Source of the DNA: an uncultured Bacteroidota bacterium
GTDB taxonomy: Bacteria; Bacteroidota; Bacteroidia; Bacteroidales; DTGW01
Length of the DNA stretch: 64,000 nucleotides
Assembly: GCA_963701015.1 (NCBI GenBank)
Contig: OY969556.1
Span: forward strand, 4,025,509-4,089,508
Direction of reading: 5' to 3'
The translations under genes were made by a program, and so were the position numbers. Positions 4,087 to 30,485 of this stretch are shown here, piece after piece. The first letter of the stretch is position 1, and each line of letters starts with the position of its first letter. The notes under the pieces are model-generated. The model was not told the DNA's origin, did no database searches, and saw only the letters and a list, made by a program, of their open reading frames with translations.

Positions 4087-4165
4087 TTAATTTATTTTTT
4101 GGTTTACTTTTTATATTGGGGTGCAAAATATTGAATAGGATGGCTTTGCAAGCTATATATTTTTT

Positions 4166-5110: not shown

Positions 5111-5175
5111 GTGTTGAAGTTCTTGGAAAATTTAAAAATAAATTTGGGGCTTACTTAAACTAATTACTTAGCTTA

Positions 5176-5309
5176 ACTTTGACAGATTTACCTGCTTCAA
5201 AGATTTTCAGCTTTTATTACCCCAGCCCCTAAAGGGTGAAAGCTGAAAATCAGACTGTTCCCTTTAGGGATTAAGGGTAAAAACAGGAAGATTTTCTATC
5301 TGTCAAAGT
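5176..5309. mobile_element. MITE-like element, copy 1 (about 134 bp, perfect 12-bp terminal inverted repeats)
   Basis: ACTTTGACAGAT at 5176-5187 pairs with ATCTGTCAAAGT at 5298-5309. The interior holds two hairpin units and a GATTTTCAGCTTT/AAAGCTGAAAATC inverted repeat. A second copy, inverted relative to this one, lies at 49055-49188. Confidence 0.8.
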
Positions 5310-5399
5310 ACGATTAGTTTAAAAAGCTGTATTAAATTCAAGCAATTTCAAGTCATCTTTTAAAATTTAAAAATTAAGGCAGTTGTTCTATATTTTTAT

Positions 5400-5723
5400 T
5401 TAGCATAATGTAACCCCTTCCATTAAAGCGGTTTTAATTATTCCCCTGCAATCGTCTGGTTGCCCTATTAGTACATCTATTTTCTGATCTTCCAGTTTTT
5501 CTTTTAAATGTACCAGGTATCTGATTTTTTTCCTGTATAATAAAGTTGCTTCATCCGGTAAAGGGATAACCATAAGGTCAATGTCCCCTCCGCAGGCCTG
5601 GTCGTTAACACGTGAACCGAAAAGTATTACCCTGGCTTCTTTACCAAATTCATTCCAGGCCTCCTGTACAATTATTTCTTTTTCTTTAGCGCTAATTCGC
5701 ATAGGTTTTATAGTAAAAGTCAT
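5400..5723 (-). CDS. minimal nucleotidyltransferase (MNT-type, toxin-antitoxin-associated NTase fold)
   Basis: 107-aa ORF with the LFGSRVNDQACGGDIDLMV signature (GS...DxD). No adjacent HEPN partner ORF is visible. Confidence 0.7.
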   Translation of the reverse strand: MTFTIKPMRISAKEKEIIVQEAWNEFGKEARVILFGSRVNDQACGGDIDLMVIPLPDEATLLYRKKIRYLVHLKEKLEDQKIDVLIGQPDDCRGIIKTALMEGVTLC

Positions 5724-5915
5724 ATTTCAAACAAAGATAAAAAACATTCACTGAATTAATAAATTTACGTTTGCAATGTTTCTAATCTATAAATAACCCT
5801 TCGCAAACAAGTGTTTAAGTATGGAAACTAAGGGTTGTTGCATGTATTTAAAAAAAATTGTTCTTATACTGATTAATTGTCAAAAAGTATTAAAAATGTA
5901 CCAATTGAAAAACAT
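5563..5915. repeat. direct repeat DR-A, copy 1 (about 350 bp)
   Basis: Near-identical to 9342-9627, with weaker similarity continuing to about 9695. It covers the 5' 160 bp of the MNT gene, its upstream region and a copy of the GT2 gene start. Confidence 0.9.
5819..5845 (-). repeat. duplicated 5' end of the GT2 gene (copy 2 of 3)
   Basis: GTATGGAAACTAAGGGTTGTTGCATGT matches the true start region of the 4166-5110 gene at 5086-5112. A third copy lies at 9599-9627. Confidence 0.9.
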
Positions 5916-6990
5916 TGGGAAAAGTTAACACTTCCCCGCTATTGAGGGTCTATGTCTACAGGGCAAACGCATTAAAAACGACTGTATAGGGTTAATAAAT
6001 AGCATCTTATGGCATGTTTTACTTTTTTACCTCCCTGCCCTCCTTAAAAAGGAGGGTAAACTGAGTTGTGGACTGCGAATATGATCGCCCAGTTATAGCT
6101 CCTTTTAAAGTGGTTGGGGTTAATAAAAAACAAACAAATTTTAATGCGTTTGCCCTGGCTATGTTTATGCACATGTCTCTAAATCCCATATATTTCGCCC
6201 CAATGGGGCTATTAAAATTCATTTATATTATTCTTTAAACATATCATCACTAAGTGTTTTTTAATATTTTATTGGCTCCAGAGGGGTTAAATATTTATAG
6301 ATATAAACAATTATCCTGTTATTCTAGTCCCATGGGGACGAAATATTCAAGATGTGAGTATATCCATGTCTTGTAAAGGGGAGGAAACAAATTTATTTCT
6401 TTCTCCCTCTCCGTTTGGAGAGGGTTGGGGAGAGGTCAAATTCTTTTATTCCTCTTCTTTTTGGCTTGAACCAGTTGGAGGATTAAAGGAAAACGGTGGA
6501 CGGAAAAAGGATTGAAATAATGAGCGAGGGATGTCCACTTTTGAATTTATTCTCCTTCTTTTTGGCTTGAAACCCGAAGGGCTCAACGAAGTTAACCAAA
6601 AAGAAGCAAAACTTAGCGAAGCGTTCTCATGACCGAAGGGAGTAAAGTTCAAGTTTCAAGTTTCCCCTCCTTTTATAAGAACGGCAAAGCCCTCATGACC
6701 GAAGGGAATAACGGGTTGGGGTGGTTCTTAAGGCTCGCGGATGATCGGGCAATTTAACCTCACCCTTTCTCCCTCTCCAAAAGGAGAGGGAATAAAAATT
6801 TGAGTGCTGTCGTTCACGGTTGGTACGATCTGAAAGCCAATCAGCTCGTACAAAAGGGAACCCTCTACGCCAGCTGGGGCAGCTGGCAATGAGAATATCT
6901 AAAATTATTAGGCTCTGGCATACATGGATGGTGCGAGTTTGTTGGTCAGTCAAAGGTACTGACAACATGTTCGTGCCAGTTGGTTGCTAA
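5850..6990. repeat. GC-hairpin mosaic region (modular REP/BIME/BOX-like repeats)
   Basis: A dense series of short palindromic units shared with 20.1-28.6 kb, often in opposite orientation. Examples are CTCCCTCTCC..GGAGAGGGTTGGGGAGAGG and CTTAGCGAAGCGTTCTCATGACCGAAGGGAGT. ORFs here have nonsense-like low-complexity translations. Confidence 0.85.
5959..6157. repeat. 199-bp segment bounded by a perfect 19-bp inverted repeat
   Basis: CAGGGCAAACGCATTAAAA at 5959-5977 pairs with TTTTAATGCGTTTGCCCTG at 6139-6157. The 161-bp interior contains a CCCTCCTTAAAAAGGAGGG hairpin. Confidence 0.85.
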
Positions 6991-7098
6991 ACAGATGTGA
7001 AAATTATTTCTGAATCTTATTAATTTAATTTTTTTGGCTAAAACTAAGACACAGCCGACACATCCGTGCTAGAAAGTGTATTTGTCATCTATTATTTT

Positions 7099-8277
7099 TT
7101 ACTTTATTGATCCACCCCATATAACATTTTCGACATTGCGGGGTGGATGATTGCTTATTATTGTATAATTATTTAACCCGATGTTTTTGGATAATTTAAT
7201 TAATTGTTGCAAATCAGCAGGAGTAGCTGTTTCTTTTACCTCAAAAGCATGACTATTGTTTAAAACAAAATCAATTTCATGCCCGGTTTTCAAGGCATAA
7301 TAATTTAATATACCAAAATGATGCAACTGGTTGTAAATAGCATTTTCAAATAATACCCCACCCGAAACTTTTGCAAGTCGATTCAATATTCCATTGTCGC
7401 AAAAAAACACCTTTTTTGCCTTAACAATTTCACGGTCAGGGTTTTTTGACGTTACCGCAATACGTTGAATAATATAAGTTTTCTCAAACAATTCAATATA
7501 ATTTGTTACGGTTGGCTTAGACAAGCCTGTAAGAGCAGAAATTTTCGCAAAATCGAGTTTGGAAGCAGTACGAGAGGCCAACATGATTAATAAATTTCTT
7601 ATGTTGTTGGCATTCTTAAAATCAGAAAGCCACTTTATATCTATGTTAATGTACGAACTTATTAAATCTTCAAGAATATCTGTTTTTTGATTGATAGCAT
7701 CTGTTAGTACAACTTCGGGCATACCACCGAAATTTAAATATTCATTATAATATCCTTGTAGCCTTTCATAATCGTTTTGCTGAAATACCTGTTTGCTAAA
7801 GTTGAACGGAGTCCACGCAACTGATTTAAAAGTCAGGAATTCACCAAAGTCGAGTGGGTAAAGCTCAAATATTTTTTTCCTACCGGCTAATGATTCCGAA
7901 AAAAGGTTTTTTAAATAGTAAGAGCTCGAGCCTGTAATGATGAATTTAATACTATAATTGTCGTACAAATATTTTACAACGCTCGGCAGGTTTGGTAATA
8001 ATTGAGCCTCGTCAATTGCAATTGCCAATTGAGAGTCAAAATTTATGCCTCGCTGTTTTAGTGCCAATATTATGTTTTCGTAATTCGGGTCATTAAACAA
8101 ATTGCGGTTATCAAGTCGTTCTAAATCAAAATAAACACTGTTGTTTTGAAAATATTCGTCCAGCAATTTTTTTACCAGGGTAGTTTTACCAGTACGTCGT
8201 AAACCTGTAATTATGCTAACTTGTGGTTGTTTGGCATGTTCTACAAGCGCTGCATGTATTTTTCGTTCAAAAAACAT
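7099..8277 (-). CDS. AAA+ ATPase (AAA_14 + DUF4143 type)
   Basis: 392-aa ORF with Walker A (ITGLRRTGKTTL) and the architecture of the widespread DUF4143 ATP-binding proteins. Confidence 0.75.
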   Translation of the reverse strand: MFFERKIHAALVEHAKQPQVSIITGLRRTGKTTLVKKLLDEYFQNNSVYFDLERLDNRNLFNDPNYENIILALKQRGINFDSQLAIAIDEAQLLPNLPSVVKYLYDNYSIKFIITGSSSYYLKNLFSESLAGRKKIFELYPLDFGEFLTFKSVAWTPFNFSKQVFQQNDYERLQGYYNEYLNFGGMPEVVLTDAINQKTDILEDLISSYINIDIKWLSDFKNANNIRNLLIMLASRTASKLDFAKISALTGLSKPTVTNYIELFEKTYIIQRIAVTSKNPDREIVKAKKVFFCDNGILNRLAKVSGGVLFENAIYNQLHHFGILNYYALKTGHEIDFVLNNSHAFEVKETATPADLQQLIKLSKNIGLNNYTIISNHPPRNVENVIWGGSIK

Positions 8278-8598: not shown

Positions 8599-8663
8599 CA
8601 TTTAACACTACAAATTGAGAAACCGAGGAAATTTATTTATCTTTGTATATAAAGATAGAGTTT

Positions 8664-8966
8664 ATGCCTAAATTGTATGAATATTTCGGATTGATTTTTC
8701 TATTTTACTCTCAAGAGCATGAACCGATTCATGTTCATGGGAAATATCAAGATAAGGAAAGTAAAGCTGAGATTATCTTTGAGAATGGGAAGTTTAAGGA
8801 AATTGTAATTAAAGATGTTCCAGGTAAAGCTCCATTAGATACACAAAATCTTAAAAAGTTCAAAAAAGTAATTGAATTGTACCGTGATGATATAGTTAGA
8901 AAATGGATTGACTTTTTTGTTTATAATATTGAGTTTCCATCTGAAAAAATAACAAAAAAAATATAA
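8664..8966 (+). CDS. DUF4160-family small protein
   Basis: The ORF has an EHEPIHVHGKY motif. The ATG at 8664 is preferred over the TTG at 8643. It sits 2 nt from the downstream DUF2442-like ORF. Confidence 0.65.
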   Translation: MPKLYEYFGLIFLFYSQEHEPIHVHGKYQDKESKAEIIFENGKFKEIVIKDVPGKAPLDTQNLKKFKKVIELYRDDIVRKWIDFFVYNIEFPSEKITKKI

Positions 8967-8968
8967 TT

Positions 8969-9211
8969 ATGGTCATATCGATTGATATAGCTGATTATGT
9001 AGGAGAATATAAAATTAAATTTTTATTCTCTGATGGAGTTGAGAAATTAATTGATTTCTCTGAGTTTTTAAAAGGAGCAAAGAATCCAATGACAAAAAAA
9101 TATCTTGATAAACAATTGTTCAAATCATATTCAATTAATTATGGAGATATAATTTGGAATGATTATGAAATGTGTTTCCCAATTTGGGATTTACATGAAG
9201 GGAAAATATAA
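8969..9211 (+). CDS. DUF2442-family small protein
   Basis: 80-aa ORF tightly coupled to the DUF4160 ORF. The same two-gene arrangement recurs at 25427-25877. Confidence 0.6.
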   Translation: MVISIDIADYVGEYKIKFLFSDGVEKLIDFSEFLKGAKNPMTKKYLDKQLFKSYSINYGDIIWNDYEMCFPIWDLHEGKI

Positions 9212-9334: not shown

Positions 9335-9502
9335 TTAGCTTGGGATAACCATAAGGTCAATGTCCCCTCCGCGGGCCTGGTCGTTAACACGTGAACCGAA
9401 AAGTATTACCCTGGCTTCTTTACCAAATTCATTCCAGGCCTCCTGTACAATTATTTCTTTTTCTTTAGCGCTAATTCGCATAGGTTTTATAGTAAAAGGC
9501 AT
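9335..9502 (-). pseudogene. truncated duplicate of the MNT nucleotidyltransferase gene (first about 54 codons)
   Basis: Encodes MPFTIKPMRISAKEKEIIVQEAWNEFGKEARVILFGSRVNDQARGGDIDLMVIPS*. It is near-identical to the 5' part of 5400-5723, and homology stops at 9342. Confidence 0.85.
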
Positions 9503-9695
9503 ATTTCAAACAAAGATAAAAAACATTCACTGAATTAATAAATTTACGTTTGCAATGTTTCTAATCTATAAATAACCCTTCGCAAACAAGTGTTTAAGCA
9601 TGGAAACTAAGGGTTGTTGCATGTGTTTTAAAAAAATTATCATTGTTACTGATTATTTGTAAAAAGTGTTATAAAAGTACAAATTGGTAAACTTA
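9342..9695. repeat. direct repeat DR-A, copy 2
   Basis: Aligns with 5563-5915. It includes the third copy of the GT2 gene start (9599-9627). Confidence 0.9.
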
Positions 9696-9706
9696 GTGAA
9701 TCTTTT

Positions 9707-9737
9707 CCCCTCCTGGGAGGGGATTGGGGTGGGTTTC
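9707..9737 (+). repeat. hairpin + TTGGGG unit (REP-like)
   Basis: CCCCTCCTGGGAGGGGATTGGGGTGGGTTTC. The same architecture occurs about 20 times in the window. Confidence 0.85.
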
Positions 9738-9759
9738 AATAGAAATTTAGACAAGCATA

Positions 9760-11253: not shown

Positions 11254-11664
11254 AAACTAATCATTAATTTTAATGTTTAATATACGTTATATTATAATTT
11301 TAAATTAGAAACCTCTAAATATACAATTATTCGAATCACTTAAAAATCATTTGGGTAATAAAATGACTTTTTCCGATTACCCACATAATGTAATTTTTTA
11401 TTAAAATACTTGCTAATTCTGACACGGATATGTTGCCATTACATTGTCTTAAAATTCAAGATTCGTTGTAATTTCTTAGTTACGTCGTACTTTTCTTCCT
11501 GCTACTTGCGGTTTAATTACAACAAATATATACTATCCAGCAATTTGATAATGAAAACAACAGCAAATCATTTGCTTTTATTCTTCATCATTTTGGCTTA
11601 GACCAGTCGAAGCACAAATGGAAATTGGTAAACAGAAAAGGGATAGAAATAATGCACGAAGGCT

Positions 11665-11753
11665 GTCCACGGATTGTACGATACGAATGCCAATCTGCAC
11701 GAGCGGCGGTGACATATGCTGAAAGGTTGGCTTTGGGATGGTATATGTGGTGA
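11665..11753. repeat. 89-bp repeat family copy (inverted relative to 20579-20667)
   Basis: GTCCACGGATTGTACGATACGAATGCCAATCTGCACGAGCGGCGGTGACAT... aligns at about 75-80% with the reverse complement of 20579-20667. Confidence 0.75.
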
Positions 11754-12035
11754 CAAGATACTACTTTCAGTTGTGAACTAAGCAATGCTTTCTCAATACC
11801 AAAGGGAGTAATACGCTTCGTTAATTTGAAGGTAGATAGTTTGCATATTTAAGCTCGGCAACCCCGGGCTTTATATATTTTGAAATATTCCTTTACCAGC
11901 AAATAAACACGCAAAATTCGGTTTAAGTGTTATTTTGTTGGTTAAGGCACTTAAAACATTTCAATACCAACTGGTTACCTACTAACTTTTGAATTTCATT
12001 TTATAAGCCAAACTATAATTGCTCCTATTTCAAAG

Positions 12036-18774: not shown

Positions 18775-20112
18775 TTAAATAGTTTCTGAATTAATCCAAT
18801 CAATTTTTGGCATTATTACACCAGGCCTGTTGTCGGCATATTGTTTGTTAAGTCCATCAATGTTAATAATAGAAAAGGGATATATAACTTTTTCAAAGCT
18901 TATCCATTTTACATTATGTATTCCAATGGCAATATTAATAATATAGGAACCAGGTTTTAAAAAATTTGAAGGAATTATTGCAGTTGATTTATAATTTCCA
19001 ATTTCAAAAGTCTCTGTTCGTATAATATCATCATGAAAAGTTCTGAAAAGTGTAAGCCCACTTTTAGAATCAATTAAATCAAAACCTATTCTTAGCCCAC
19101 TTATTTTTTTCTTTACAAAATATTCATATTCAATAATTATTTCATCTTTTGTATAAAACTCATTAGCATTTGATCCTTTCTGATATATATTTAACTTTTT
19201 AAGTTTAAAATATTCATCATCTGGTAAATTTATTTCTGCCAAAGAATCTCTGCTTTCTTTATTATTATTGGCAGATGATAAATAATATTCAATACCTTCA
19301 TTAACATTACCATTATAAACTGTTGTTCCGTTTTGAAGTACATATAAATTATTGCATAAATTCGCAATAGCAGTCATATTATGGCTCACAAATATAACAG
19401 TTCGGCCTTGTCCCTGGCTTACTTCCTGCATTTTGCCAATGGCTTTTTTCTGGAACTCGGCATCGCCCACGGCCAATACTTCATCAACCACCAATATTTC
19501 CGGCTCCAAATGGGCTGCCACTGCAAAGCCCAGGCGCACGGTCATACCGCTACTGTAACGTTTTACGGGAGTGTCAATGTATTTTGCTACGCCGGCAAAA
19601 TCAACAATTTCGTCCAGCTTCTTGTCAATTTCCCACTTGCGCATGCCCATTATGGTTCCATTCACGTAAATGTTTTCGCGGCCGGTCATTTCGGGGTGAA
19701 AGCCCGTGCCAACTTCCAGTAGGCTGGCAATACGGCCTTTTACTTTTATACTGCCCGTGGTGGGAGAGGTTACCTTGGAGAGTATTTTTAGCAAGGTGCT
19801 TTTACCGGCACCGTTTTTGCCTATAATACCCAGCACTTCGCCCTGCTTAACTTCAAGGTTAATATCCTTTAAAGCCCAAACTAATTCGGCCTCCCCCCTG
19901 CCCCCTCCATGAGAGGGGGAGTTAGCCTTCCCCCCTTTGGGGGGATTGAGGGGGGCTAATATATTTGTCTGCCCTACTTTGGTATAAGGGTCGGGTTGCC
20001 CAAGCAGGTTCATGCGCCACCAGCGGTTAAGGTCGTGGCTAAGCGTGCCGGTGCCTATTTGCCCCAGGCGGTAAAGTTTCGAGAGGTTTTCAATTTTAAT
20101 TACGGTGGACAT
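18775..20112 (-). CDS. wzt: O-antigen/glycan ABC exporter ATP-binding protein Wzt, with a C-terminal glycan-binding-type domain
   Basis: Walker A GKNGAGKSTLLK, signature YSSGMTVRL and Walker B ILVVDE, plus an extra C-terminal domain of about 190 aa. It carries an in-frame GC-rich palindromic insertion at 19888-19956. Confidence 0.85.
   Translation of the reverse strand: MSTVIKIENLSKLYRLGQIGTGTLSHDLNRWWRMNLLGQPDPYTKVGQTNILAPLNPPKGGKANSPSHGGGRGEAELVWALKDINLEVKQGEVLGIIGKNGAGKSTLLKILSKVTSPTTGSIKVKGRIASLLEVGTGFHPEMTGRENIYVNGTIMGMRKWEIDKKLDEIVDFAGVAKYIDTPVKRYSSGMTVRLGFAVAAHLEPEILVVDEVLAVGDAEFQKKAIGKMQEVSQGQGRTVIFVSHNMTAIANLCNNLYVLQNGTTVYNGNVNEGIEYYLSSANNNKESRDSLAEINLPDDEYFKLKKLNIYQKGSNANEFYTKDEIIIEYEYFVKKKISGLRIGFDLIDSKSGLTLFRTFHDDIIRTETFEIGNYKSTAIIPSNFLKPGSYIINIAIGIHNVKWISFEKVIYPFSIINIDGLNKQYADNRPGVIMPKIDWINSETI
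19888..19956. repeat. REP-like double-hairpin unit inserted in frame within wzt
   Basis: CCCCCTC-catga-GAGGGGG and CCCCCC-ttt-GGGGGG followed by ATTGAGGGGGG. On the coding strand it is translated as ILAPLNPPKGGKANSPSHGGGRGEAE. Confidence 0.8.
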
Positions 20113-20775
20113 TGTGTAAATTACAAATTACAAAGGACAATTTGCAAAATTAGCGAATTTATACCAAAACGGAAAATGAAAAAGGGAAAAGGCCTCTCCC
20201 CAACGCTACTCCCTTCGGTCGTGAGAACGCTGCGCTTAGTTCTCCCAAGGAGAGGGAGAAAGATAAAAAATAATTTCTTAAAGTCCCTTTCTTTAGGAAA
20301 GGGTTGGGGATAGGCTACTTTAAAGAGCGGTGGCCAGATCATCCGCGTAAGCCAGCGTTGGCTTTGAGCGAGGGGTTTCGGATGATCTTGAATTTTACTC
20401 CCTTCGGTCATGAGAACGCTTCGCTAAGTTTTGCTTCTTTTTGTGTCAAGACAAAAAGAAGAGGAATAAAAGAAATTGGCCTCTCCCCAGCCCTCCCCTA
20501 AGGAGAGGGAGAAAGATAAAAAATTGTGAATTTACTTTTCTTTGCCTGCCATACATAGAAAAGGTAACAAAAGAAAAATCACTACGGATACCATCCCCAA
20601 GCCAATCTATTCGCACATGCCACCGCCACTTGTGCCGATTGGCTTTCGGATCGCACTATCCGTGGACGTCAACGCGCAAAGCAATTTAATGAATTATCTT
20701 CTTATCATGCGAAGCATGAAAGAGTGTGAGCCAGATCATCCGCGCGAGCCAGTGTTGGCTTTGAGCGAGGGGTAT
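20113..20775. repeat. GC-hairpin mosaic region upstream of wzt
   Basis: Contains a vestigial heptamer tract (20166-20192), the GATCATCCG...CGGATGATC long hairpin (twice), the 32-bp mini-insert (20208-20239, 20397-20428), hairpin+TTGGGG units and the 89-bp repeat (20579-20667). Confidence 0.85.
20145..20164 (-). promoter_or_regulatory. conserved promoter-like box (TAATTTTG on the coding strand), 33 nt upstream of the wzt ATG
   Basis: The plus strand reads CAAAATTAGCGAATTTATAC, so the coding strand carries TAATTTTG, which matches the Bacteroidota -7 consensus TAnnTTTG. The box recurs upstream of 5 other starts. Confidence 0.55.
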
Positions 20776-20841
20776 AGTTTCGAGAGGTTTTACCTTCGGT
20801 GAGAACGCTTCGCTTAGTTCAATTTTAATTACGGTTGACAT
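20776..20841 (-). pseudogene. duplicated 5' end of wzt (38 bp of CDS) interrupted by a 28-bp mini-insertion
   Basis: AGTTTCGAGAGGTTTT[ACCTTCGGTGAGAACGCTTCGCTTAGTT]CAATTTTAATTACGGTTGACAT compared with the uninterrupted 20075-20112. Confidence 0.9.
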
Positions 20842-20887
20842 TGTGTTAATTACAAATGACTAATTACTAATTACAAATTACAATTTA

Positions 20888-20907
20888 CAAAATTAGCGAA
20901 ATTATAA
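20888..20907 (-). promoter_or_regulatory. conserved promoter-like box copy
   Basis: CAAAATTAGCGAAATTATAA, 47 nt upstream of the relic wzt start. Confidence 0.45.
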
Positions 20908-20908
20908 T

Positions 20909-21141
20909 AAAACGGAAAATGGTTGGCGGAAAACGGTAAACGGAGTAAGGTAAAAGGGTAAACGGAGAAGGGAGAACGGAAAACGGTTGGCGGAAAACGG
21001 AAGAAGGGGAAAGGAAAACGGAAAACGGGGAATGGAGGAAGGAGGACGGAAAACGGTAAACGGAAAACGGTAAACGGAGAAGGGAAGACGGTAAACGGAG
21101 AAGGGAGAATGGAGGAAGGAAAACGAGGAATGGAGGAAGGA
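20909..21141. repeat. purine-rich heptamer minisatellite, array 1 (about 33 units)
   Basis: GGAAAAC/GGTAAAC/GGAGAAG/GGAGAAC units stay in a continuous 7-bp phase, with one 8-bp slip. Confidence 0.9.
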
Positions 21142-21183
21142 TAAATGAAACTGTCTTATTTGTTATTGAAACCCACCCCTTAG

Positions 21184-21199
21184 CCCCTCCCGGGAGGGG
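21184..21199 (-). terminator. candidate hairpin terminator or insulator (perfect 16-bp palindrome)
   Basis: CCCCTCCCGGGAGGGG lies 18 nt downstream of the stop of the 21218-22006 ORF. There is no clear U-tract. Confidence 0.3.
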
Positions 21200-21217
21200 A
21201 AATTGAATTATGTTTTT

Positions 21218-22565
21218 TCATTTTACCACCTCCCAATGCCCCCCTTTATCGGGGCCAATGCGTTTAATTGCTTTTCTGTCTTTTAATATTTTTAAATATC
21301 TTTGAATAGACCGTTCTGTAAGGGTCATTCTTTTTGCCAAATCGGAAGCTGATAATTGATTGTTTATTTTCAATAATTTAATTATTTCTATCTCATTTTC
21401 TACGACATTTTCTACGACATTTTCGGTGTCCTTATCGAATGTTTCAATATTTGCAGTCGTCTTTTGTTTGGTATAACTTAATTCAACAAAAAAACCGTTT
21501 GGAATTTCGTTGTAATCGAAATTCATTGTCGGGTATTGCCTAAGTTCATCACGTATCCGTTTAAACCCACTGCCATATTTTTCAATATCGCCGGTTAAAT
21601 AAAATGCTTCGGCCAGTAATTTATTTCGGGCATAGGCCTGATAATTATTGGTTTTTAAATCGGCAATAGTTAGATTGCCAAACAAAGTGCCGGGATTAAA
21701 AAAAGTAATGCTTTTGTCGAATATCTTAATTTGAATATCAACAGGGCTTAAATAATCGCGATGGATTAGCGAGTTTAATACCAATTCCCTGAGCGCTGGC
21801 AAGGGGTATTCAAATATTTCGGTTCGTTGTGTTGTTCTACCTGAAATTTCGAAAGCTACTTTTATTTGCGAAATTAAATATTTCATGGTTTCATCAACAG
21901 CCTCAAACAAGGGTAACCTCAACATTTTATCGTCAATAATAAGCGATGGGGTTTTAAAACGGCCTAAATGCACATTATACGAAATATCGGTTTTTGCAAA
22001 AAGCAAGTATGCTGCATTTGTAATTTTATTATTTGAAATGAACCTGAGTTTTTCGAGATTTTCAATCGTAGTCCCTTCTAAATTTAAAACGCCCGATAGT
22101 ATTTACTTTCTGTATAAATTTATCTACCTTTTTGAGGTCAATATCCACTAAATTTATATTATTTGCAGGATATGAATCCCATGAAACCTGCAGCGATTGC
22201 ATGCTTAAATCGGCTATCTCAAGTGCAGTCAACTGGTGATTCGAGTTTTTTACCCTTTTATAATAACGGCCTTTAAACGAAATTGGCTTTACCGGAAATT
22301 CATGAATAATTAAGGCAACTGTTTTTTTGCCTTTATAATTTATTAATTCAATATCAGGAATAATGGAGGGTTGTGTTTTTACTTTTATTTCGTTTATCCA
22401 TTTTTGAAAAGTTTCTTTGCCATACGTGAAGTTTTTATTAATACTTCCGTCATCGTTAATGCCAACAAATACTTTACCCCCTTTACAATTGGCATAGGCA
22501 ACCAAAGTTTCAATAACAGTATCGTTAAAGCCTGATTTATATTCTATGTGCTCGTTTTCAAGCAT
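21218..22565 (-). pseudogene. Schlafen/AlbA_2 + HATPase_c_4-like + wHTH putative regulator, split by a frameshift
   Basis: ORFs 22062-22565 (AlbA_2 N-terminus, HIEYKSGF...) and 21218-22006 join to read ...GRFKLEGTTIENLEKLRFISNNKITNAAYLLFAKTD if one T is removed from the run at about 22080-22090. Confidence 0.75.
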
Positions 22566-22598
22566 TAGGTAGTATTTTTTTTAACACTTTACCAATTA

Positions 22599-22618
22599 CA
22601 AAATTAGTGAATTTATAA
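22599..22618 (-). promoter_or_regulatory. conserved promoter-like box copy
   Basis: CAAAATTAGTGAATTTATAA, 34 nt upstream of the AlbA_2 ORF start. Confidence 0.5.
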
Positions 22619-22902
22619 TAAAACGGAAGACGGTAAACGGAGAAGGGAAAACGGAGAAGGGAGAACGAAAAACGGAGAATGGTAAACGGAGAAGGGAAAA
22701 CGGAAAACGAGGAATGGTAAACGGAGAAGGGAGAACGGAAAACGGAAAACGAAAAACGGAGAATGGTAAACGGAGAAGGGAGAACGGAAAACGGAAAACG
22801 GAAAACGGGGAATGGAAAACGGAGAAGGGAGAACGGAAAAAGGGAAACGGAGAAGGGAAATCGAAAAACGGAAAAGGGAAAACGGAGAAAGGAAAACGAG
22901 GA
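22619..22902. repeat. purine-rich heptamer minisatellite, array 2 (about 40 units)
   Basis: Same heptamer family, with a 49-bp higher-order repeat (GAGAATGGTAAACGGAGAAGGGAGAACGGAAAACGGAAAACGAAAAACG). Confidence 0.9.
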
Positions 22903-23099
22903 TAATTTTTTAAAAATTAGGGCAAAATTTCAAAATTATGCAAATTCGTATTCCACACTATTTACAGGTATTTGTCATCATTTACTTTAATTAAAAATAT
23001 CTATAGCTTTTTCAATTAAATAGGCTTTTATCTCTTCTTCATTAACAGCCGGTACAATATATTCAACAGGCTCGGAGTAATCAATGTCATTAAAATAGG

Positions 23100-23603
23100 C
23101 TAACTGGCACTGAATTGTTTCTCGGAAAATAAATCATTGTATATAGTTAAGGCCTTTTCTGAAACTTGTTTAATGGAATAAAATTTTCTTAAAATAAAAT
23201 ATAAATCAACATAATCTTTCCATTTCGATCGTCTGCTCATGGCAAATGCCTTCATAGCAGCTAATGTTAATAAATCAGGCATTTTTAAATACCCCTCAAA
23301 TTCACACGACGCAATTATTTGATAAGGGTACTGAAAAAAAGTAAATTTTACATCTTGAATAGTTACATTTAGCTGTTCATAAACCCTTCTGTTAACAATA
23401 TACTTTTTATGTAACGAATCAATCTTTTTAAGCAACCTTTTAGGTTGGATTTCATTTTGTTTAAACAAATCAAAATCAATAGATCTTCTATGGCCAATGT
23501 GTAATGCAATAGCAGTTCCTCCAACAAGATAAAATTCTCTTTTAAACAATTTCACCAATGGCAATAATTCTAATTGATCAGTATTTAAAATTTCTTTATG
23601 CAT
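23100..23603 (-). CDS. AbiEii/AbiGii-type nucleotidyltransferase toxin-like protein (3' end frameshifted)
   Basis: LVGGTAIALHIGHRRSIDFDLF motif. A further 37 codons (QLAYFNDIDYSEPVEYIVPAVNEEEIKAYLIEKAIDIFN*) continue in another frame down to 22987. Confidence 0.65.
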   Translation of the reverse strand: MHKEILNTDQLELLPLVKLFKREFYLVGGTAIALHIGHRRSIDFDLFKQNEIQPKRLLKKIDSLHKKYIVNRRVYEQLNVTIQDVKFTFFQYPYQIIASCEFEGYLKMPDLLTLAAMKAFAMSRRSKWKDYVDLYFILRKFYSIKQVSEKALTIYNDLFSEKQFSAS

Positions 23604-23871
23604 ATCGTGAGAAAAGAATAAAAAAGTAATTATAAATTTCAGGAAAGAAATTCATTTTCTTCCTACCTTGCATATTATTAAACACTTTTGCCACGTTTTC
23701 AATACCCATTATTGAAAAAAGTTTATGCACTGCATCTAATGAGCCATAATTTAAAATGTGTTCTACCAATAATTCGTGGCTTATATTCTCCTTTTCTTTT
23801 TCGGGTGTGTACCAAAAAAGGGAGCTGTTTTGGCGTATAAATGCTTTTAGTTCTTCAGTATTTTCAGGCAT
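23596..23871 (-). CDS. small partner protein of the AbiEii-like gene (putative antitoxin)
   Basis: 91-aa ORF overlapping the downstream NTase gene by 8 nt. Confidence 0.45.
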   Translation of the reverse strand: MPENTEELKAFIRQNSSLFWYTPEKEKENISHELLVEHILNYGSLDAVHKLFSIMGIENVAKVFNNMQGRKKMNFFPEIYNYFFILFSRYA

Positions 23872-23898
23872 CTAGATAGTATTAGAAATATAAAATTA

Positions 23899-24194
23899 CT
23901 AAAATATACTTGTAAACATTTTATATAAGGTAATTTTGCCTGCCCCGTTACGGCCAGTTATGCCCACACGGTCGTTTGTTTTATTTCAAAATTTAAATCC
24001 TTTAAAGCCCAAAAATCTTCCATTTCATCGTTGGCAATAAGCTGTCCGCCTTTAAATATTTGGCGGGTTTTAGATGCTATTTGCCGGACTTTATTGGCCA
24101 GAACATCGCGCAAAGCGGTATAACGCTCGTGCTTTTCGTGGCCTATAATATAACTTTTGCCCAGGTTCTCGGCTTTAATTACTGTATGGCTCAT
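23899..24194 (-). pseudogene. relic of a second, divergent wzt/tagH-type ABC ATPase gene (N-terminal about 90 codons, frameshifted and truncated)
   Basis: Encodes MSHTVIKAENLGKSYIIGH...FWALKDLNFEIKQ, then after a 1-nt shift DRVGITGRNGAGKITL (Walker A). Homology ends where the AbiE-like pair begins. Confidence 0.85.
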
Positions 24195-24240
24195 GAAGAC
24201 AATTACTAATTACTTATCACAAATGTCAAATGACAATTTG

Positions 24241-24260
24241 CAAAATTAGTGAATTTATAA
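24241..24260 (-). promoter_or_regulatory. conserved promoter-like box copy
   Basis: CAAAATTAGTGAATTTATAA, 47 nt upstream of the relic wzt' ATG. Confidence 0.5.
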
Positions 24261-24280
24261 CAAAACAGAAAATTGTAGTC

Positions 24281-24550
24281 GGAAGACGGAGAAGGGAAAA
24301 AGGTGGACGGAAAACGGAAAACGGAGAATGGAAAACGGAGGATGGTGGACGGAAAACGGAGAAGGGAAAACGGAAAACGGAGAATGGTAAACGGAGAAGG
24401 GAGAATGGTAAACGGAGAAGGGAGAATGGTAAACGGAGAAGGGAGAATGGTAAACGGAGAAGGGAGAACGGAAAACGAAAGACGGAGAATGGTAAACGGA
24501 GAAGGGAGAACGGAAAACGGAGAAAGGAAAACGGAAAACGGGGAAGAGAA
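24281..24550. repeat. purine-rich heptamer minisatellite, array 3 (about 38 units)
   Basis: Includes 3 perfect copies and 1 near-perfect copy of the 21-bp unit GGTAAACGGAGAAGGGAGAAT at 24386-24469. Confidence 0.9.
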
Positions 24551-24835
24551 ATAATATTTGTGAGATTGTTGTAATTTGAAACCCACCCTTTAGCCCCTCC
24601 CGGGAGGGGAAATATTTTTTCGTATCACACAAAGTGTGAAAGAGCGATGGCTTGATCATCCGAGCGAGCCTTAAGAACCACCCATTAGCCCCTCCTTTAA
24701 AAGGAGGGGAAACTGATTTGTTAACTTTACTCGACTTCGTCTAATGAACTAAGCGAAGCGTTCTCACGAGTTTTACGAGTAGCTTAGCCTTTGGCGTTCT
24801 CACGACCAAAGGGAATAAATCGCTTCGCTTAGACA
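24551..24835. repeat. conserved 285-bp GC-hairpin block (copy a)
   Basis: Collinear with 28126-28410, and partly with 26221-26345 and 21142-21215. It contains CCCCTCCCGGGAGGGG, TCACAC-aaa-GTGTGA, GATCATCCG... and CCCCTCCTTTAAAAGGAGGGG. Confidence 0.9.
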
Positions 24836-25400
24836 GCCCGCAGCTGAAATTGTATTTTTTTTATCACACTTTGTGTGAAAGAGCGTGAACCAGATCATCC
24901 GCGCGAGCCAGCGTGGGCATTGAGCGAGGGGTTTCGGATGATCTTGAATTTTACTCCCTTCGGTCATGAGAACGCTTCGCTAAGTTTTGCTTCTTTTTGG
25001 TTCATGCCAAAAAGAAGGGGAATGAATGCAAAAGATTTGCTGTTGTATTTATTATATGCAATGTTGGCTAGTAGCGATTTATTTTTCTTTGCTTGCCATG
25101 CAAAGAAAAGGTAACAAAACTTAGCGATATGGTTTACTCACTGTGGTCATGAGAACGCGTTGCTAAGTTCATGAACGAAGGGAGCAAAGGGGTTGGGGAT
25201 AGGCCTTTTGGCTTTCGGACCGCACCATCTGTGGACTCCCTACGCGCAAAGCTCAAAACTCTTTACAGTTTACAACCATTTACCGTTAACCGTTTTCCTT
25301 TTATCCGTCAAATGGTTCAAGCCAAAAATAAGAGGAATGCTGGAAAAAGCTTTATTTGTAAATTAAAATCAGCTTTAACCGCCTATCGAGGAAATGAAGT
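24836..25400. repeat. GC-hairpin mosaic region
   Basis: Same modules as 20113-20775, in similar order. Confidence 0.85.
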
Positions 25401-25426
25401 TGAATTTAACCATTTTCCCATTATTG

Positions 25427-25663
25427 TTAATATAACAATGCTTCAACTAAAATATCTTCATCAAGAATTTCCCAATGAATCCCTTCGCCACCACCAATAA
25501 ACCTATAATTTTCCCTATCTTTTTTGGAAGCATCGCGCAAACTGGGAAACCAATCAATTGGTACTGAAAGTTCTCTTCCATCGTCAAGTAAAATATGCAT
25601 CATTAAGTCTGAAAACCAAACTTTTGTTGCATTAGCCGATTTAATAATTGTTGTGATATTCAT
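25427..25663 (-). CDS. DUF2442-family small protein
   Basis: 78-aa ORF (ILLDDGRELSVPIDWFPSLRDAS...GIHWEILDEDI) that overlaps the upstream DUF4160 ORF. Confidence 0.65.
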   Translation of the reverse strand: MNITTIIKSANATKVWFSDLMMHILLDDGRELSVPIDWFPSLRDASKKDRENYRFIGGGEGIHWEILDEDILVEALLY

Positions 25664-25877
25664 TCCATTTAATATTAAGAAAGTCTAAATTTTGAATTAT
25701 TAAATTTCTTATTTCATGAATCTCTGAAGAATTAAAATGTTTTGATTTAATAATTTCAACAGGATTTAATAAAAATTTTGCGGTACCTTCTGCTTTTTCA
25801 ATATGAATATGTGCAGGAGAATGATCATTAACATAAAAGAAAAACCTGTATCCATTAATATTTAATATTGTTGGCAT
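25641..25877 (-). CDS. DUF4160-family small protein
   Basis: 78-aa ORF with a HSPAHIHIEKAEGTAKF motif. Confidence 0.65.
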   Translation of the reverse strand: MPTILNINGYRFFFYVNDHSPAHIHIEKAEGTAKFLLNPVEIIKSKHFNSSEIHEIRNLIIQNLDFLNIKWNEYHNNY

Positions 25878-25905
25878 AACAATTTAGATATTGTTTGACA
25901 AAACT

Positions 25906-25925
25906 CAAAATTAGCGAATAAAATA
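25906..25925 (-). promoter_or_regulatory. conserved promoter-like box copy (proximal)
   Basis: CAAAATTAGCGAATAAAATA, 29 nt upstream of the DUF4160 ATG. Confidence 0.5.
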
Positions 25926-25968
25926 ACTTATTGCCAATGACTAATTACTGATTATAAATGATAATTTT

Positions 25969-25988
25969 CAAAATTAGCGAATTTATAA
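25969..25988 (-). promoter_or_regulatory. conserved promoter-like box copy (distal, tandem)
   Basis: CAAAATTAGCGAATTTATAA, directly abutting array 4. Confidence 0.45.
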
Positions 25989-25989
25989 T

Positions 25990-26222
25990 AAAACGGAAAA
26001 AGGGAAACGCAGTAAGGAAAAAGGGAAAACGGAGAAGGGAGAAGGGAGAAAGGAAAACGGGAAAGGAAAACGGAAAACGGAAGACGGAAGACGGAAAACG
26101 GGGAATGGAGAATGGTAAACGGAGAACGGAAAACGGAAGACGGAAGACGGAGAAGGGAAAACGGAAGACGGAAGACGGAGAACGGAAAAAGGAAAAAGGA
26201 AAATGGAAAACGGGGAAGAGAA
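25990..26222. repeat. purine-rich heptamer minisatellite, array 4 (about 33 units)
   Basis: Same heptamer family (GGAAGAC, GGAAAAC, GGAGAAG ...). Confidence 0.9.
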
Positions 26223-26900
26223 ATAATATTTGTGAGATTGTTGTAATTTGAAACCCGCCCCAACCCCTCCCGGGAGGGGAAATATTTTTTCGTATCACAC
26301 GAAGTGTGAAAGAGCAGCGGCCGGATCATCCGCGCGAGCCAGCGTTGGCTTTTAGCGAGGGGTTTCGGATGATCTTGAATTTTTGCTTCTTTTTGGTTCA
26401 GGCCAAAAAGTAGAGGAATAAATGAAATTGGCCTCTCCCCAGCCCTCTCCTAAAGAGAGGGAGTAGGAAAGTATTAAAAAATTTGGTGCAAAATAAATTA
26501 TTTCATAAAACTTCTTTCTTTTGGAACTTAGCGAAACGGTCTCATGACCGAAGTGAGTAAAGGGGTTTGGGATAGGCACTTTGGCTTTCAGATCGCACTA
26601 TCCGTGGACGACAGCGCGCAATACTCAAGACTTTTAACTGTATAAAACCATTTACCATTCACCGTTTTCCTTTTATCTGTCAAATGGTTCAAGACAAAAA
26701 GAAGAGGAATAAAATTTAGGAGAATTGTGCTCTCAATCCCCCAGCCCCCTTTTCAAAGGGGGAAAGCCCTGCTTTACAGTATAAAACCATTTACCTTTCT
26801 CCGTTTTCCTTTTATCCGTCAAATGGTTCAGGCCAAAAAGTAGAGGAATGCAAAGCTTTTGTAATACGCGTTTAAACTATCTTCATGAACGAAGTGTATA
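26223..26900. repeat. conserved hairpin block (copy b) plus GC-hairpin mosaic
   Basis: 26223-26345 matches 24553-24670. It is followed by an empty site for the 32-bp mini-insert (T-run 26380-26384), hairpin+TTGGGG units and two AACCATTT...AAATGGTT units. Confidence 0.85.
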
Positions 26901-26967
26901 AACTCGTACAAGTTGGACATTATGTATAAATCACTAACATCTATCAACAAGCAACTTACAACCTCTT

Positions 26968-27837
26968 TTATACGGTATCAATAAAACTTCTTTCAGTACG
27001 GTTAAAGATAATTATACCTAAAAACAAAACCACCAGGGTAAAAACTGTAGTGTATATTATCCCGGTTGAACTATGGGTGCCTGAACCCAGGAATCCGTAT
27101 TTAAATGTTTCTAAAATTGGTGTCATAGGATTAGCCATAATGAAAGGGCGTAATTTGCCATGAATCATAGAAACAGGGTAAATTACAGGGGTTGCATACA
27201 TAAGTAATTGAACTCCAAATGTTATAAGAAATGTCAGGTCGCGGTATTTAGTTGTTAGCGAAGTGAAAATAATCCCGAATCCCAAGCCAAGTCCACCCAT
27301 CAATAAAATAAGATACGGTGTTAACAACATATAAATATTGGGATGAATTGACAAATTGTGTTTTAATAAATAATAAATAAATACAGCTAAAAACAAACCA
27401 AATTGGATGCCAAATTTTATTAATCCCGATAAAACTTTTGACATTGGTGAAACAAGCCTTGGGAAATAGACCTTACCAAAAACATTGGCATTATCGGTAA
27501 ATGTCTTAGATGTTATACTAAAGCATTCTGAAAAATAATTCCAAACAATAATACCTGCAAGATAGAATAGCATCATGGGAATACCATCGGTAGGCATTTT
27601 GGCAATATTACCGAAAACCACAATATATATAGCCGTGGTTAAAATAGGTTGAAGTATAAACCAAATTGGACCAAGAACGGTTTGTTTATAAACCGTAACA
27701 ATGTCACGTTTAACAAACATGGTAAGTAAGTCACGATACTGCCAAATTTCTTTCAGGTTAATATCGAGAAGATGTTTCTTAGGCTGTATTATTTGAGTCC
27801 ATTGCTCTTCCGTAGTATTAAATTTTTCTTCGGGCAT
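26968..27837 (-). CDS. wzm: ABC-2 type glycan/O-antigen exporter permease Wzm
   Basis: 289-aa ORF with 6 predicted TM segments and a typical N-terminus (...EIWQYRDLLTMFVKRDIVTVYKQTVLGPIWFILQP). Confidence 0.85.
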   Translation of the reverse strand: MPEEKFNTTEEQWTQIIQPKKHLLDINLKEIWQYRDLLTMFVKRDIVTVYKQTVLGPIWFILQPILTTAIYIVVFGNIAKMPTDGIPMMLFYLAGIIVWNYFSECFSITSKTFTDNANVFGKVYFPRLVSPMSKVLSGLIKFGIQFGLFLAVFIYYLLKHNLSIHPNIYMLLTPYLILLMGGLGLGFGIIFTSLTTKYRDLTFLITFGVQLLMYATPVIYPVSMIHGKLRPFIMANPMTPILETFKYGFLGSGTHSSTGIIYTTVFTLVVLFLGIIIFNRTERSFIDTV

Positions 27838-27886
27838 TCTATTTTAAATTACCTATTACAAATGATTGTTAACAAATGATAAATTG

Positions 27887-27906
27887 CAAAATTAAGGAAA
27901 TTAAAC
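27887..27906 (-). promoter_or_regulatory. conserved promoter-like box copy
   Basis: CAAAATTAAGGAAATTAAAC, 50 nt upstream of the wzm ATG. Confidence 0.5.
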
Positions 27907-27918
27907 CAAATCTGACAA

Positions 27919-28125
27919 TGGAAAAGGGAGTTCGGAAAACGGAAGACGGAAAAGAGAGAAGGGAAGTCAATTACAAATTACGAATGACAAATTGGAAAAC
28001 GGAAAACGGAAGACGGAAGACGGAGAAGGGAAAACGGATAAGGGAAATCAATGACAAATTACAAATTACGGATGACAAATTGGAAAACGGAAGACGGAGA
28101 AGGGAAAACGGAGAACGGGAAAAAG
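27919..28125. repeat. heptamer minisatellite, array 5 (about 29 units, interleaved with A/T heptamers)
   Basis: GGAAAAC/GGAAGAC/GGAGAAG runs are interrupted twice by ATTACAA-ATTACGA-ATGACAA type heptamers, in the same 7-bp phase. Confidence 0.9.
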
Positions 28126-28410
28126 AAATAAGATTTGTGAGAGGGGTGTAATTTGAAACCCACCTCAACCGCTTCCGGGAGGGGAAATAATTTTTCGTAT
28201 CACACGAAGTGTGAAAGAGCGCGAGCCTGATCATCCGCGCGAGCCTTAAGAACCACCCCTTAGCCCCTCCTTTTAAAGGAGGGGAAACTGATTTGTTAAC
28301 TTTACTCGACTTCGTCTCATGAACTAAGTGAAGCGTTCTCACGAGTTTTACGAGTAACTTAGCAACGCGTTCTCACGACCAAAGGGAGTAAAACGCTTCG
28401 CTAAGTTCTA
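28126..28410. repeat. conserved 285-bp GC-hairpin block (copy c)
   Basis: Collinear with 24551-24835. Confidence 0.9.
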
Positions 28411-28639
28411 AGGGAGAAAAGCCTTGCCTTACAATATAAAACCATTTACCGTTCACCGTTTTTCTTTTATCCGTCAAATGGTTCAAGCCAAAAAGAAGAG
28501 GAATGTTAGCAAAAGCTTTAATACTTTATTGGTATGGAATTTATTTTTTATTTTGTAACACACGCTAGTAGTGTCACCACAGCTACTATCAGTTGATGCT
28601 TTGTACGTAATGCAAATTAATTTCCACTCCCGGGAAGGG

Positions 28640-29770: not shown

Positions 29771-29942
29771 AGTTTCATTTATTATTCAACAAATATAATA
29801 CAAAAAGTGTATGGTACAAAAAGTGTATGGTACAAAAAGTGTCTTTATAAAATTTGTGGAATAGTAAAAGGTTTAATACAATAAAAAAATAGGGCAAAAA
29901 ATTCAATATTTCTGTAATATATAGAAAGGCAGGGAAAGTAAT

Positions 29943-30485
29943 TTATTTATTGATAAGTATTTCTGAATTCTCAACAAAATTCGATTCCTGGATTCGTCTT
30001 AAACTTGAAGGGTGTATTTCTACCAGCAAAGATTGATTAATTGCATCGATTTGCAATAATGCTCTTTTCTTTCCTTTGTAAGTTACTAATGTACCACAGA
30101 ATCCGGTTAAAGCACCGCGATAGACTTCTACCATCTCCCCGTATTCAAATAAATCATAGCTAACTTCAAATTTCTCTGTAGATTTTAAAAGCATTTTCAG
30201 GAATTCAATTTGATAGTCGGGTATTTTTGCCGGTTGAAATTCGAAGGATACAAAACCCGCAACACCGTCAATTGCTCTTACAATATGATATTTCTTATAG
30301 TTGGTGCGAACAAAAACATACGATCGGAATAAAGGCATTTCAACCATTTTTTTTCTGTCATGCCACTGGCGAAGGGTTTTTTGTAATGGCAAATAGGCTT
30401 CAATGCCATGCTCACATAACCGGGCATAAGCAACCTTCTCACTTCGCGACCGCACATAAATTGCATACCAATGAAGTTGCAACAT
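29943..30485 (-). CDS. UpxY-family (NusG/RfaH-like) transcription antiterminator
   Basis: WYAIYVRSRSEKVAYARL...PLFRSYVFVR plus a C-terminal KOW-like region. The ATG at 30485 is preferred over the longer ORF. Its position at the head of the glycan locus fits the family. Confidence 0.8.
   Translation of the reverse strand: MLQLHWYAIYVRSRSEKVAYARLCEHGIEAYLPLQKTLRQWHDRKKMVEMPLFRSYVFVRTNYKKYHIVRAIDGVAGFVSFEFQPAKIPDYQIEFLKMLLKSTEKFEVSYDLFEYGEMVEVYRGALTGFCGTLVTYKGKKRALLQIDAINQSLLVEIHPSSLRRIQESNFVENSEILINK

Follow-up and report, generated by a model that had tools for sequence, protein, structure and literature searches.

The polysaccharide locus in the 64-kb window analyzed here, taken from a 4.47-Mb Bacteroidota contig, raises the question of how the genes of a long operon can be expressed when insertions have split them. 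The genes wzm and wzt, which adjoin in relatives, are 6.8 kb apart in this window, and a short box recurs between them and upstream of wzm, ahead of one start codon after another. As judged from the sequence, the box is most likely an ordinary Bacteroidota housekeeping-sigma promoter core that has been copied five to seven times, and each copy probably restarts transcription after the inserted cassettes, which are of a selfish, toxin-antitoxin-like type, and after repeat blocks. We regard as likely the broader interpretation in which a reiterated, otherwise ordinary primary-sigma promoter module, embedded in heptamer repeats, serves the genes that insertions have split in this locus. The argument draws on the anatomy and base composition of the sequence, on the structure of the copies and their placement before start codons, and on the fact that wzm and wzt adjoin in relatives.

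The box, TTATAAATTCRCTAATTTTG, was found without mismatches at 22599, 24241 and 25969 and with one mismatch at 20145 (GTATAAATTC...) and 20888 (TTATAATTTC...), always on the minus strand, which encodes nearly all genes at 0.2-40 kb. These five full copies compare with 0.24 expected in a scan of the window even when three mismatches are allowed, and the exact 13-mer TTCRCTAATTTTG has six matches, every one on the minus strand and at 20.1-26.0 kb. The original prediction that a conserved 20-bp box recurs in this DNA was therefore borne out. It had listed seven copies, five of which stand as full copies with at most one mismatch. The copy at 25906 is partial, consists of the 3' 13-14 nt only, and looks like a box that lacks one 7-nt unit, and the copy at 27887-27906 is degenerate, with five mismatches. 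The boxes at 20145 and 27887 were independently reproduced in short-read Logan contigs of run ERR11718638 (L109 and L080, respectively). Another contig, L114, begins 128 nt upstream of the AlbA_2 ATG and is expected to span the box at 22599.

All seven copies, including the degenerate and the truncated ones, carry at their 3' end TAATTTTG, which matches the Bacteroidota -7 element TAnnTTTG perfectly, as had been proposed. The boxes are intergenic and on the coding strand, and the distance from their final G to the ATG is 28, 32, 33, 46, 46 or 49 nt, except that the distal box of a tandem pair is 91 nt away. A transcript starting about 5 nt after the final G would have a 5' untranslated region (UTR) of 24-45 nt, a typical length: the median is 24 nt in Flavobacterium psychrophilum, where the -7 box is at -12 to -5, and 32 nt in Bacteroides thetaiotaomicron (PMC9723704). 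The upstream regions of 11 other first genes in the window have TAnnTTTG 19-57 nt before the ATG. No TTTG is found 17-21 nt upstream of the -7 element in the box copies, which confirms that a properly spaced -33 TTTG is not evident; of the five full copies, four have TTTC or TTTT at 19-20 nt, and a TTTG or TTTA is seen at 12 nt, TTTG in three copies. The suggestion that the promoter may be atypical or factor dependent was not supported. TTTG at 16-21 nt is also absent from 8 of the 11 ordinary candidates (the remaining three have it at 16-19 nt), and in global Flavobacterium johnsoniae data the -33 motif was not detectable; it is weak or absent in many genuine promoters (PMC7366714). Therefore, the missing -33 TTTG is not unusual here. 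A sigma-70 promoter scan was discarded as irrelevant for Bacteroidota.

The window genes, which include a T9SS type A sorting domain and an UpxY-like NusG, place the host in the Bacteroidota; the best Wzt relatives are from Flavobacterium, Bacteroidales and Chitinophagaceae, and the organism is low-GC. An exact 19-mer scan of GTDB representatives, a collection without the source genome, gave 79 matches with Bacteroidota over-represented (32 of 79). The matches were intergenic and 15-70 nt before an ATG-started open reading frame (ORF) in 20 of the 32 Bacteroidota cases versus 2 of the 47 from other phyla, a bias that favors the -7 interpretation. Each of these genomes had a single match and none was multi-copy.

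The leaders between the boxes and the start codons are AU-rich, lack a Shine-Dalgarno sequence and, the AlbA_2 leader excepted, are no more structured than shuffled controls. These properties agree with the principle described for initiation without Shine-Dalgarno sequences (PMC6847099), and the unstructured AU-rich UTRs expected from the predicted start sites would suit that mode of translation. A terminator scan of the minus strand found no consistent intrinsic terminator ahead of each box, and no Rfam covariance model reached its gathering score anywhere in the window.

The starts downstream of the boxes belong to wzt, to two wzt fragments, to a split AlbA_2/HATPase_c_4 gene, to a DUF4160/DUF2442 pair and to wzm. 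Fragment F1 duplicates the first ~50 nt of wzt almost identically and is broken by a 28-bp repeat module, and F2 stems from the 5' end of another wzt allele, cut just after the Walker A motif. These starts had been called unrelated, and this is correct for wzm, DUF4160 and AlbA_2; the start at 20112 is that of wzt itself, and those at 20841 and 24194 open the two 5' fragments. The spacing is not fixed, as had been claimed, but spans 28-49 nt and once 91 nt, the gaps of the wzt-type leaders differing by multiples of 7 (14 = 2 x 7 nt). An AbiEii toxin gene and its upstream partner ORF lie 3' of F2; there is no TAnnTTTG within 200 nt upstream of the first ORF of this pair (start 23871), and the nearest one upstream is that of the box at 24241, ~370 nt away.

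The conserved unit proved to be longer than the 20 bp first proposed. Compared in pairs, the five full copies are on average 93% identical in the box versus ~60% in the 49 nt on each side. When wzt is compared with F2, a 48-nt segment from CATTTTCCGTTTT to CAAATTGTCATTTG is ~90% identical, and the coding DNA beside it is ~55-60% identical by reading of the alignment; the conserved segment is thus roughly promoter-sized. The module of ~48 bp, CATTTTCCGTTTTRTTATAAATTCRCTAATTTTGYAAATTGTCATTTG, has the box as its best-conserved part and would span roughly -38 to +10 if it is a promoter. Over 65 nt (family D3), the F1, F2 and distal DUF4160 copies are 80-83% identical to the wzt copy, the wzm copy 74% and the AlbA_2 copy 68%.

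These comparisons also bear on the possibility that segmental duplication or gene conversion left the copies behind as passive remnants. The box would then be the non-repetitive stretch between slippage-prone arrays, would look conserved only because of its fast-evolving flanks, and would be active in the wzt copy alone or in none. In favor of this, neighboring copies have the same variant at the R position (A at 22599 and 24241, G at 25906 and 25969), and the heptamers that flank them are of low complexity and vary by indels of 7-nt steps. Dead wzt fragments follow two of the copies and a split gene follows a third, and the array/leader junctions at 27968-27999 and 28056-28087 have no box. 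However, the contrast between promoter segment and coding DNA in the wzt-F2 alignment is not explained by one recent duplication, TAATTTTG was kept perfect even in the copies at 27887 and 25906, and every copy has a promoter-like distance to an ATG. On balance, we consider passive remnants an unlikely explanation.

The boxes, leaders, arrays and reference genes are collected in Table 1.

Table 1. Positions of the box copies and associated features in the 64-kb window.
Feature	Coordinates	Strand	Remarks
wzt	18775..20112	minus	Polysaccharide ABC exporter ATP-binding subunit, intact
Insertion block between wzm and wzt	20113..26967	minus	6.8 kb
AU-rich TGTAATT-type leader	20113..20144	minus	Between box and wzt ATG; unstructured
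Box	20145..20164	minus	GTATAAATTCGCTAATTTTG, 1 mismatch; 32 nt before wzt ATG (20112); in L109
Equivalent leaders	20842-20887, 24195-24240, 25926-25968, 27838-27886	minus	Lengths differ by multiples of 7
Box	20888..20907	minus	TTATAATTTCGCTAATTTTG, 1 mismatch; 46 nt before wzt fragment F1 ATG (20841)
Heptamer array	20909..21125	minus	CCGTTTT/CCCTTCT type, directly upstream of box 20888; C 40%, G 9%
Box	22599..22618	minus	Exact, R=A; 33 nt before AlbA_2 gene ATG (22565)
Heptamer array	22620..22898	minus	Directly upstream of box 22599
Box	24241..24260	minus	Exact, R=A; 46 nt before wzt fragment F2 ATG (24194)
Heptamer array	24286..24546	minus	21-nt super-period; upstream of box 24241; strongest C>G window in 64 kb
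Partial box	25906..25919	minus	ATTCGCTAATTTTG; 28 nt before DUF4160 ATG
Box	25969..25988	minus	Exact, R=G; distal tandem member, 91 nt before DUF4160 ATG (25877)
Heptamer array	25990..26213	minus	Directly upstream of box 25969
wzm	26968..27837	minus	ABC-2 permease
Degenerate box	27887..27906	minus	GTTTAATTTCCTTAATTTTG; 49 nt before wzm ATG (27837); in L080
Three short arrays alternating with leader-type heptamers	27907..28128	minus	Families D3, D6
UpxY-like NusG paralogue	29943..30485	minus	Head of polysaccharide locus; PF02357; 180-aa gene call in L081

Among the wzt loci available, the closest ones (68% identity) have a gap of 26 nt between wzm and wzt, the same methyltransferase and GT2 genes follow, and the box is absent. 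Since the two genes are that close in relatives and without a box, the box copies can be assigned to the insertion block, within which all but the one upstream of wzm are located. The block is composed of the DUF4160/DUF2442 pair, F2 with the AbiEii pair, the split AlbA_2/HATPase_c_4 gene, F1, and mosaic modules that resemble repetitive extragenic palindromic (REP) sequences.

An independent metagenomic locus, L115 (JGI 3300081534, Ga0643848_0002028; GC 33%), has the same architecture at 2400-7407. There, wzm is followed by at least four sets of heptamer arrays, heptamer leader and wzt 5' fragment (MSDIVIKAENLG...), each of them followed by toxin-antitoxin genes. A fragment like F2 is 84% identical to it and, as F2 does, breaks just after Walker A. 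The box is absent from L115, and its heptamers differ from those of the window. Two more loci (L113 and L116) have small genes between wzm and wzt. Within the window, the first ~25 nt of the GT2 gene (4166-5110), together with upstream DNA, were duplicated twice (5090-5110 to 5820-5844 and 9600-9623). The duplicates adjoin a nucleotidyltransferase gene, present as a full and a truncated copy, and a second DUF4160/DUF2442 pair (5400-5723, 8643-9211, 9335-9502); the accretion pattern is that seen at wzt, and the promoter region is different. Taken at the sequence level, these arrangements indicate that putative selfish cassettes inserted repeatedly at the 5' ends of genes, duplicating promoter, leader and 5' end. 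They also suggest that toxin-antitoxin cassettes accrete recurrently at the wzm-wzt junction.

Accretion of this kind could be read as site-specific integration. The box, the leader and the wzt 5' end would then form an att-like crossover site for small non-autonomous integrating cassettes that target the 5' end of wzt; the cassettes would bring a replacement promoter and 5' end, and tandem accretion would leave scars made of a box and a wzt fragment. Genomic islands that target tRNA genes leave tRNA fragments. Cassettes bounded by box-leader-(wzt fragment) repeats fit this model, as do the repeated leaders and wzt fragments of L115 with their toxin-antitoxin genes and common break after Walker A, the small genes in L113 and L116, and the duplicated 5' ends at the GT2 gene. 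However, the ORFs scanned in the window include no integrase, transposase or recombinase, an inverted-repeat core of the recombinase type is missing from the box, which has only a weak 5-4-5 AT palindrome, and L115 has the same architecture without the box, so the box is not needed for accretion. The junctions are placed variously in the leader and near codons 20 and 100 of wzt, and because their positions vary a single site-specific crossover is disfavored. An att-like role for the box is very unlikely. Two palindromes, AAATT-CGCT-AATTT in the box and AATTT-TGC-AAATT at the box/leader edge, were dismissed as chance or too weak; they are AT-only 5-mers and do not occur in all copies.

The setting of the box is regular. 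On the coding strand, the order of each unit is REP-like mosaic modules with the hairpin CCCCTCCCGGGAGGGG, heptamer array, box, leader and ATG. The arrays are 180-280 bp of CCGTTTT, CCCTTCT or CCGTTTA type in strict 7-nt register, and on the plus strand they read as long degenerate GGNRNAN heptamers with almost no indels. The box, at 21 nt, equals three heptamer units, the leader difference is 14 nt, and the tandem boxes at 25906 and 25969 are spaced 63 nt apart (9 x 7 nt); the stretch therefore behaves as a 7-nt lattice. On the coding strand the arrays have 37-41% C, 8-9% G and 85-89% pyrimidine, and they are the top C>G windows of the 64 kb. Judging by this composition, the arrays, if transcribed from upstream, would be unstructured and C-rich and are candidate sites for Rho loading.

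Similar purine/pyrimidine heptamer arrays occur in other contigs (L087, L089, L091, L094 and L095), and in both L095 and Pedobacter gandavensis (L076) a TAnnTTTG has a pyrimidine-rich tract directly upstream. When metagenomes were scanned with a 20-mer from an array, the scan retrieved 12 contigs with short purine heptamer arrays, none of them with the box, and a scan with a 26-mer made of the box and the array edge had no match. Nothing relevant was found in the viral contigs and plasmids searched. A protein search with the plus-strand ORF that runs through box and array ('CKISEFI...RKTENGK') recovered arrays in other genomes only and no box-encoded motif; the array ORFs of the window are called as genes nowhere. 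A look-up of the DUF4160 protein returned no record.

Three other observations concern the repeats and the -7 motif. An additional TAATTTTG is present at 22931-22938 on the minus strand, upstream of the heptamer array at 22.9 kb and downstream of AbiEii; should it be active, its transcript would carry the array as a long pyrimidine-rich leader. The leader heptamer TAATTTGT (e.g., at 20113-20144 and 20842-20887) fits TAnnTTGY, so that tandem leaders form a row of SM5-like boxes. SM5 is an alternative -7-like motif of LPS biosynthesis, amino-acid scavenging and gliding motility genes in F. psychrophilum (PMC9723704), and the likeness may be an AT-rich coincidence. Finally, at 29799-29842 a perfect 16-bp tandem repeat, TACAAAAAGTGTATGG x2.8, lies directly upstream of the -7 element TATATTTG of an AAA-ATPase gene, and each repeat unit gives a coding-strand TTTG, one of them at the canonical 19-nt spacing.

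The mechanism that we propose combines these elements. The box would supply the spacer and -7 element of a primary sigma promoter, and the module would have been copied locally inside the inserted block. In this way wzm, each inserted cassette and finally wzt could be expressed despite the interruptions of the UpxY-headed operon. The (CCGTTTT)n arrays upstream and the (TGTAATT)n leaders downstream would expand and contract in 7-nt steps, and the heptamer repeats may provide homology for copying or homogenizing the module. The C-rich arrays, as candidate Rho-loading (polarity) sites, might insulate each unit.

A more ambitious version treats array, box and leader as one portable module of insulator, promoter and leader, in which the arrays act as recombination arms and Rho stop and TTATAAATTCRC binds a co-regulatory factor. 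Whenever a selfish cassette is gained at the wzm-wzt junction, the arrays would copy the module ahead of it; incoming transcription would be halted by the C-rich array via Rho, and the dedicated factor on TTATAAATTCRC would co-regulate all units. We hold this to be distinctly improbable.

Several observations weigh against the interpretation of the box as an ordinary, locally copied promoter that renews transcription. TTATAAATTCRC, the 12 nt that precede the -7 element, is not shared by promoters of this window in general, TTCRC being found in none of the 11 ordinary promoter candidates. Sigma recognition alone would not explain why these nucleotides are conserved; a bound factor, gene conversion or recent copying could be the cause. 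In the GTDB genomes, it is probably the TAATTTTG part that produces the excess of matches at promoter positions, so this excess is not evidence for the whole 20-mer. The AlbA_2/HATPase_c_4/HTH gene (21218-22565) is split into two ORFs of 167 and 262 aa, so at least one box may drive a pseudogene; the independent short-read contig L114 shows the same split, which is therefore not an assembly error. Read-through from the upxY promoter could explain expression, and the description of the spread as local rests on 64 kb of a 4.47-Mb genome.

The position of the boxes in an operon headed by upxY invites a further alternative, namely that the box is a binding or recruitment site, either an operator for a regulator of the locus or an ops-like non-template site that reloads UpxY onto RNA polymerase after insertions. 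The box is on the non-template strand within this operon, and all 20 bp are conserved rather than the -7 element alone. JUMPstart/ops elements are conserved upstream of polysaccharide genes and offer a precedent. So do the Bacteroides opsX elements, which are ~40 bp long; however, they are located in the leader upstream of upxY (PMC11685472), and the box copies are downstream of it. In class-1 opsX, the sequence YGCGNAGCR forms a non-template hairpin after an RNA pause-hairpin region (PMC11685472); the box has no GCG..AGC, and the 85-89% pyrimidine content of the array upstream makes a hairpin impossible. The box also precedes cassettes unrelated to polysaccharide synthesis. A recruitment function is very unlikely. 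A 9-mer upstream of upxY, AGCGAATTT, was rejected since ~0.5 matches are expected by chance.

The REP-like modules that accompany the units, at 20165-20820, 24550-25400, 26215-26960 and 28130-28600, are mosaics resembling REP sequences and bacterial interspersed mosaic elements (BIME) and consist of short GC-rich pieces such as CCCCTCCCGGGAGGGG and AAAGAGCG..GATCATCCGCGCGAGCC. They are also found without a box at 6390-6850, 9704-9753 and 11548-11836 (opposite orientation), and they are confined to the polysaccharide locus, being absent from 30-64 kb. One module, D11 (28-35 bp), is inside F1 (20785-20812), with other copies at 20207, 20396 and 24952, and reads TTAGCGAAGCGTT on the non-template strand. 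D11 and the B. fragilis opsE core, CTGCGAAGCATA (PMC11685472), both contain GCGAAGC; the preceding base is A, not Y, and the likeness may be a coincidence. Repeat DNA has also entered the coding sequence of wzt. At 19880-19960, a variable loop of Wzt has gained ~20 residues (APLNPPKGGKANSPSHGGGRGEAE) from palindromic, GC-rich repeat DNA inserted in frame, an arrangement reminiscent of the in-frame gene insertions of Rickettsia palindromic elements. In the homologue P0012, this loop contains an insertion of KSQITNH x2, for which back-translation points to a heptamer-repeat origin.

If the copies are active, a long polysaccharide operon would stay functional amid toxin-antitoxin and defense cassettes by renewing the same promoter after each insertion, and promoter reuse would be linked to heptamer-repeat lattices. 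Together, the window locus and L115 present the wzm-wzt junction as a recurrent site of selfish-gene accretion in Bacteroidota. Annotation of such loci as single UpxY-driven transcripts calls for caution, since this is probably not what they are. For synthetic biology in low-GC Bacteroidota, a candidate compact promoter is available in the 48-bp module. Should array, box and leader turn out to travel as one portable module, this would be a new route for the spread of promoters and for the tolerance of operons to repeated insertions.

Among known systems, some classes of element can be set apart from the box. Integron attC and other site-specific recombination sites do not match, there being no recombinase in the scanned ORFs and no inverted repeat at the box. 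The ops/JUMPstart (RfaH) and opsX (UpxY) systems share with this locus a short non-template element and a long polysaccharide operon with a specialized NusG paralogue. Unlike ops (GGCGGTAGnnTG) and opsX, the box has no pause hairpin, is present in several internal copies and matches a promoter motif, and it has no sequence likeness to either (PMC11685472). Correia elements of Neisseria and the mosaics known as enterobacterial repetitive intergenic consensus (ERIC) sequences, BIME and REPIN demonstrate that short modular repeats can place promoters, and REP-like modules do flank the units here. However, no terminal inverted repeats or target-site duplications, as in Correia elements or miniature inverted-repeat transposable elements, surround the array-box-leader units, and the REP-like modules of the window occur without a box as well.

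Putative mobile promoters (Matus-Garcia, Nijveen and van Passel 2012; PMC3575422) are alike in that very similar upstream sequences precede non-homologous genes in one genome, and the reiterated module may be called a putative mobile promoter in that sense. The published definition asks for 80% identity or more across 50 nt or more between -150 and -50 (PMC3575422). Here, the best-conserved part of the box copies is at about -30 to -80, and the -150 to -80 region is a degenerate heptamer array. The 80-83% identity of the 65-nt F1, F2 and distal DUF4160 copies refers to a region other than the published one, and two of these three precede wzt fragments. All box copies, moreover, are within 8 kb at one locus. 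The promoters recognized by sigma-ABfr/sigma-A, with -7 TAnnTTTG and an optional -33 TTTG, agree with the box in the -7 element, the spacing to the ATG and the UTR range (PMC9723704, PMC7366714). They differ in that the box has no TTTG at 17-21 nt and that its conserved 12 nt upstream of the -7 element are in no published consensus.

The nearest parallel for the repeats is the TAACTGA heptamer leader repeats (MacGregor 2015, PMC4679880). The same study reported larger mixed heptamer assemblages in Gramella, Aequorivita and Elizabethkingia, including nearly identical repeat-rich intergenic regions, and described heptamer repeats in leaders without a known function (PMC4679880). The heptamers of the window are TGTAATT and CCGTTTT instead, and a promoter core between two heptamer families is not part of that description. 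The common features are forward tandem heptamers between a presumed promoter and a start codon, with indels of 7 nt.

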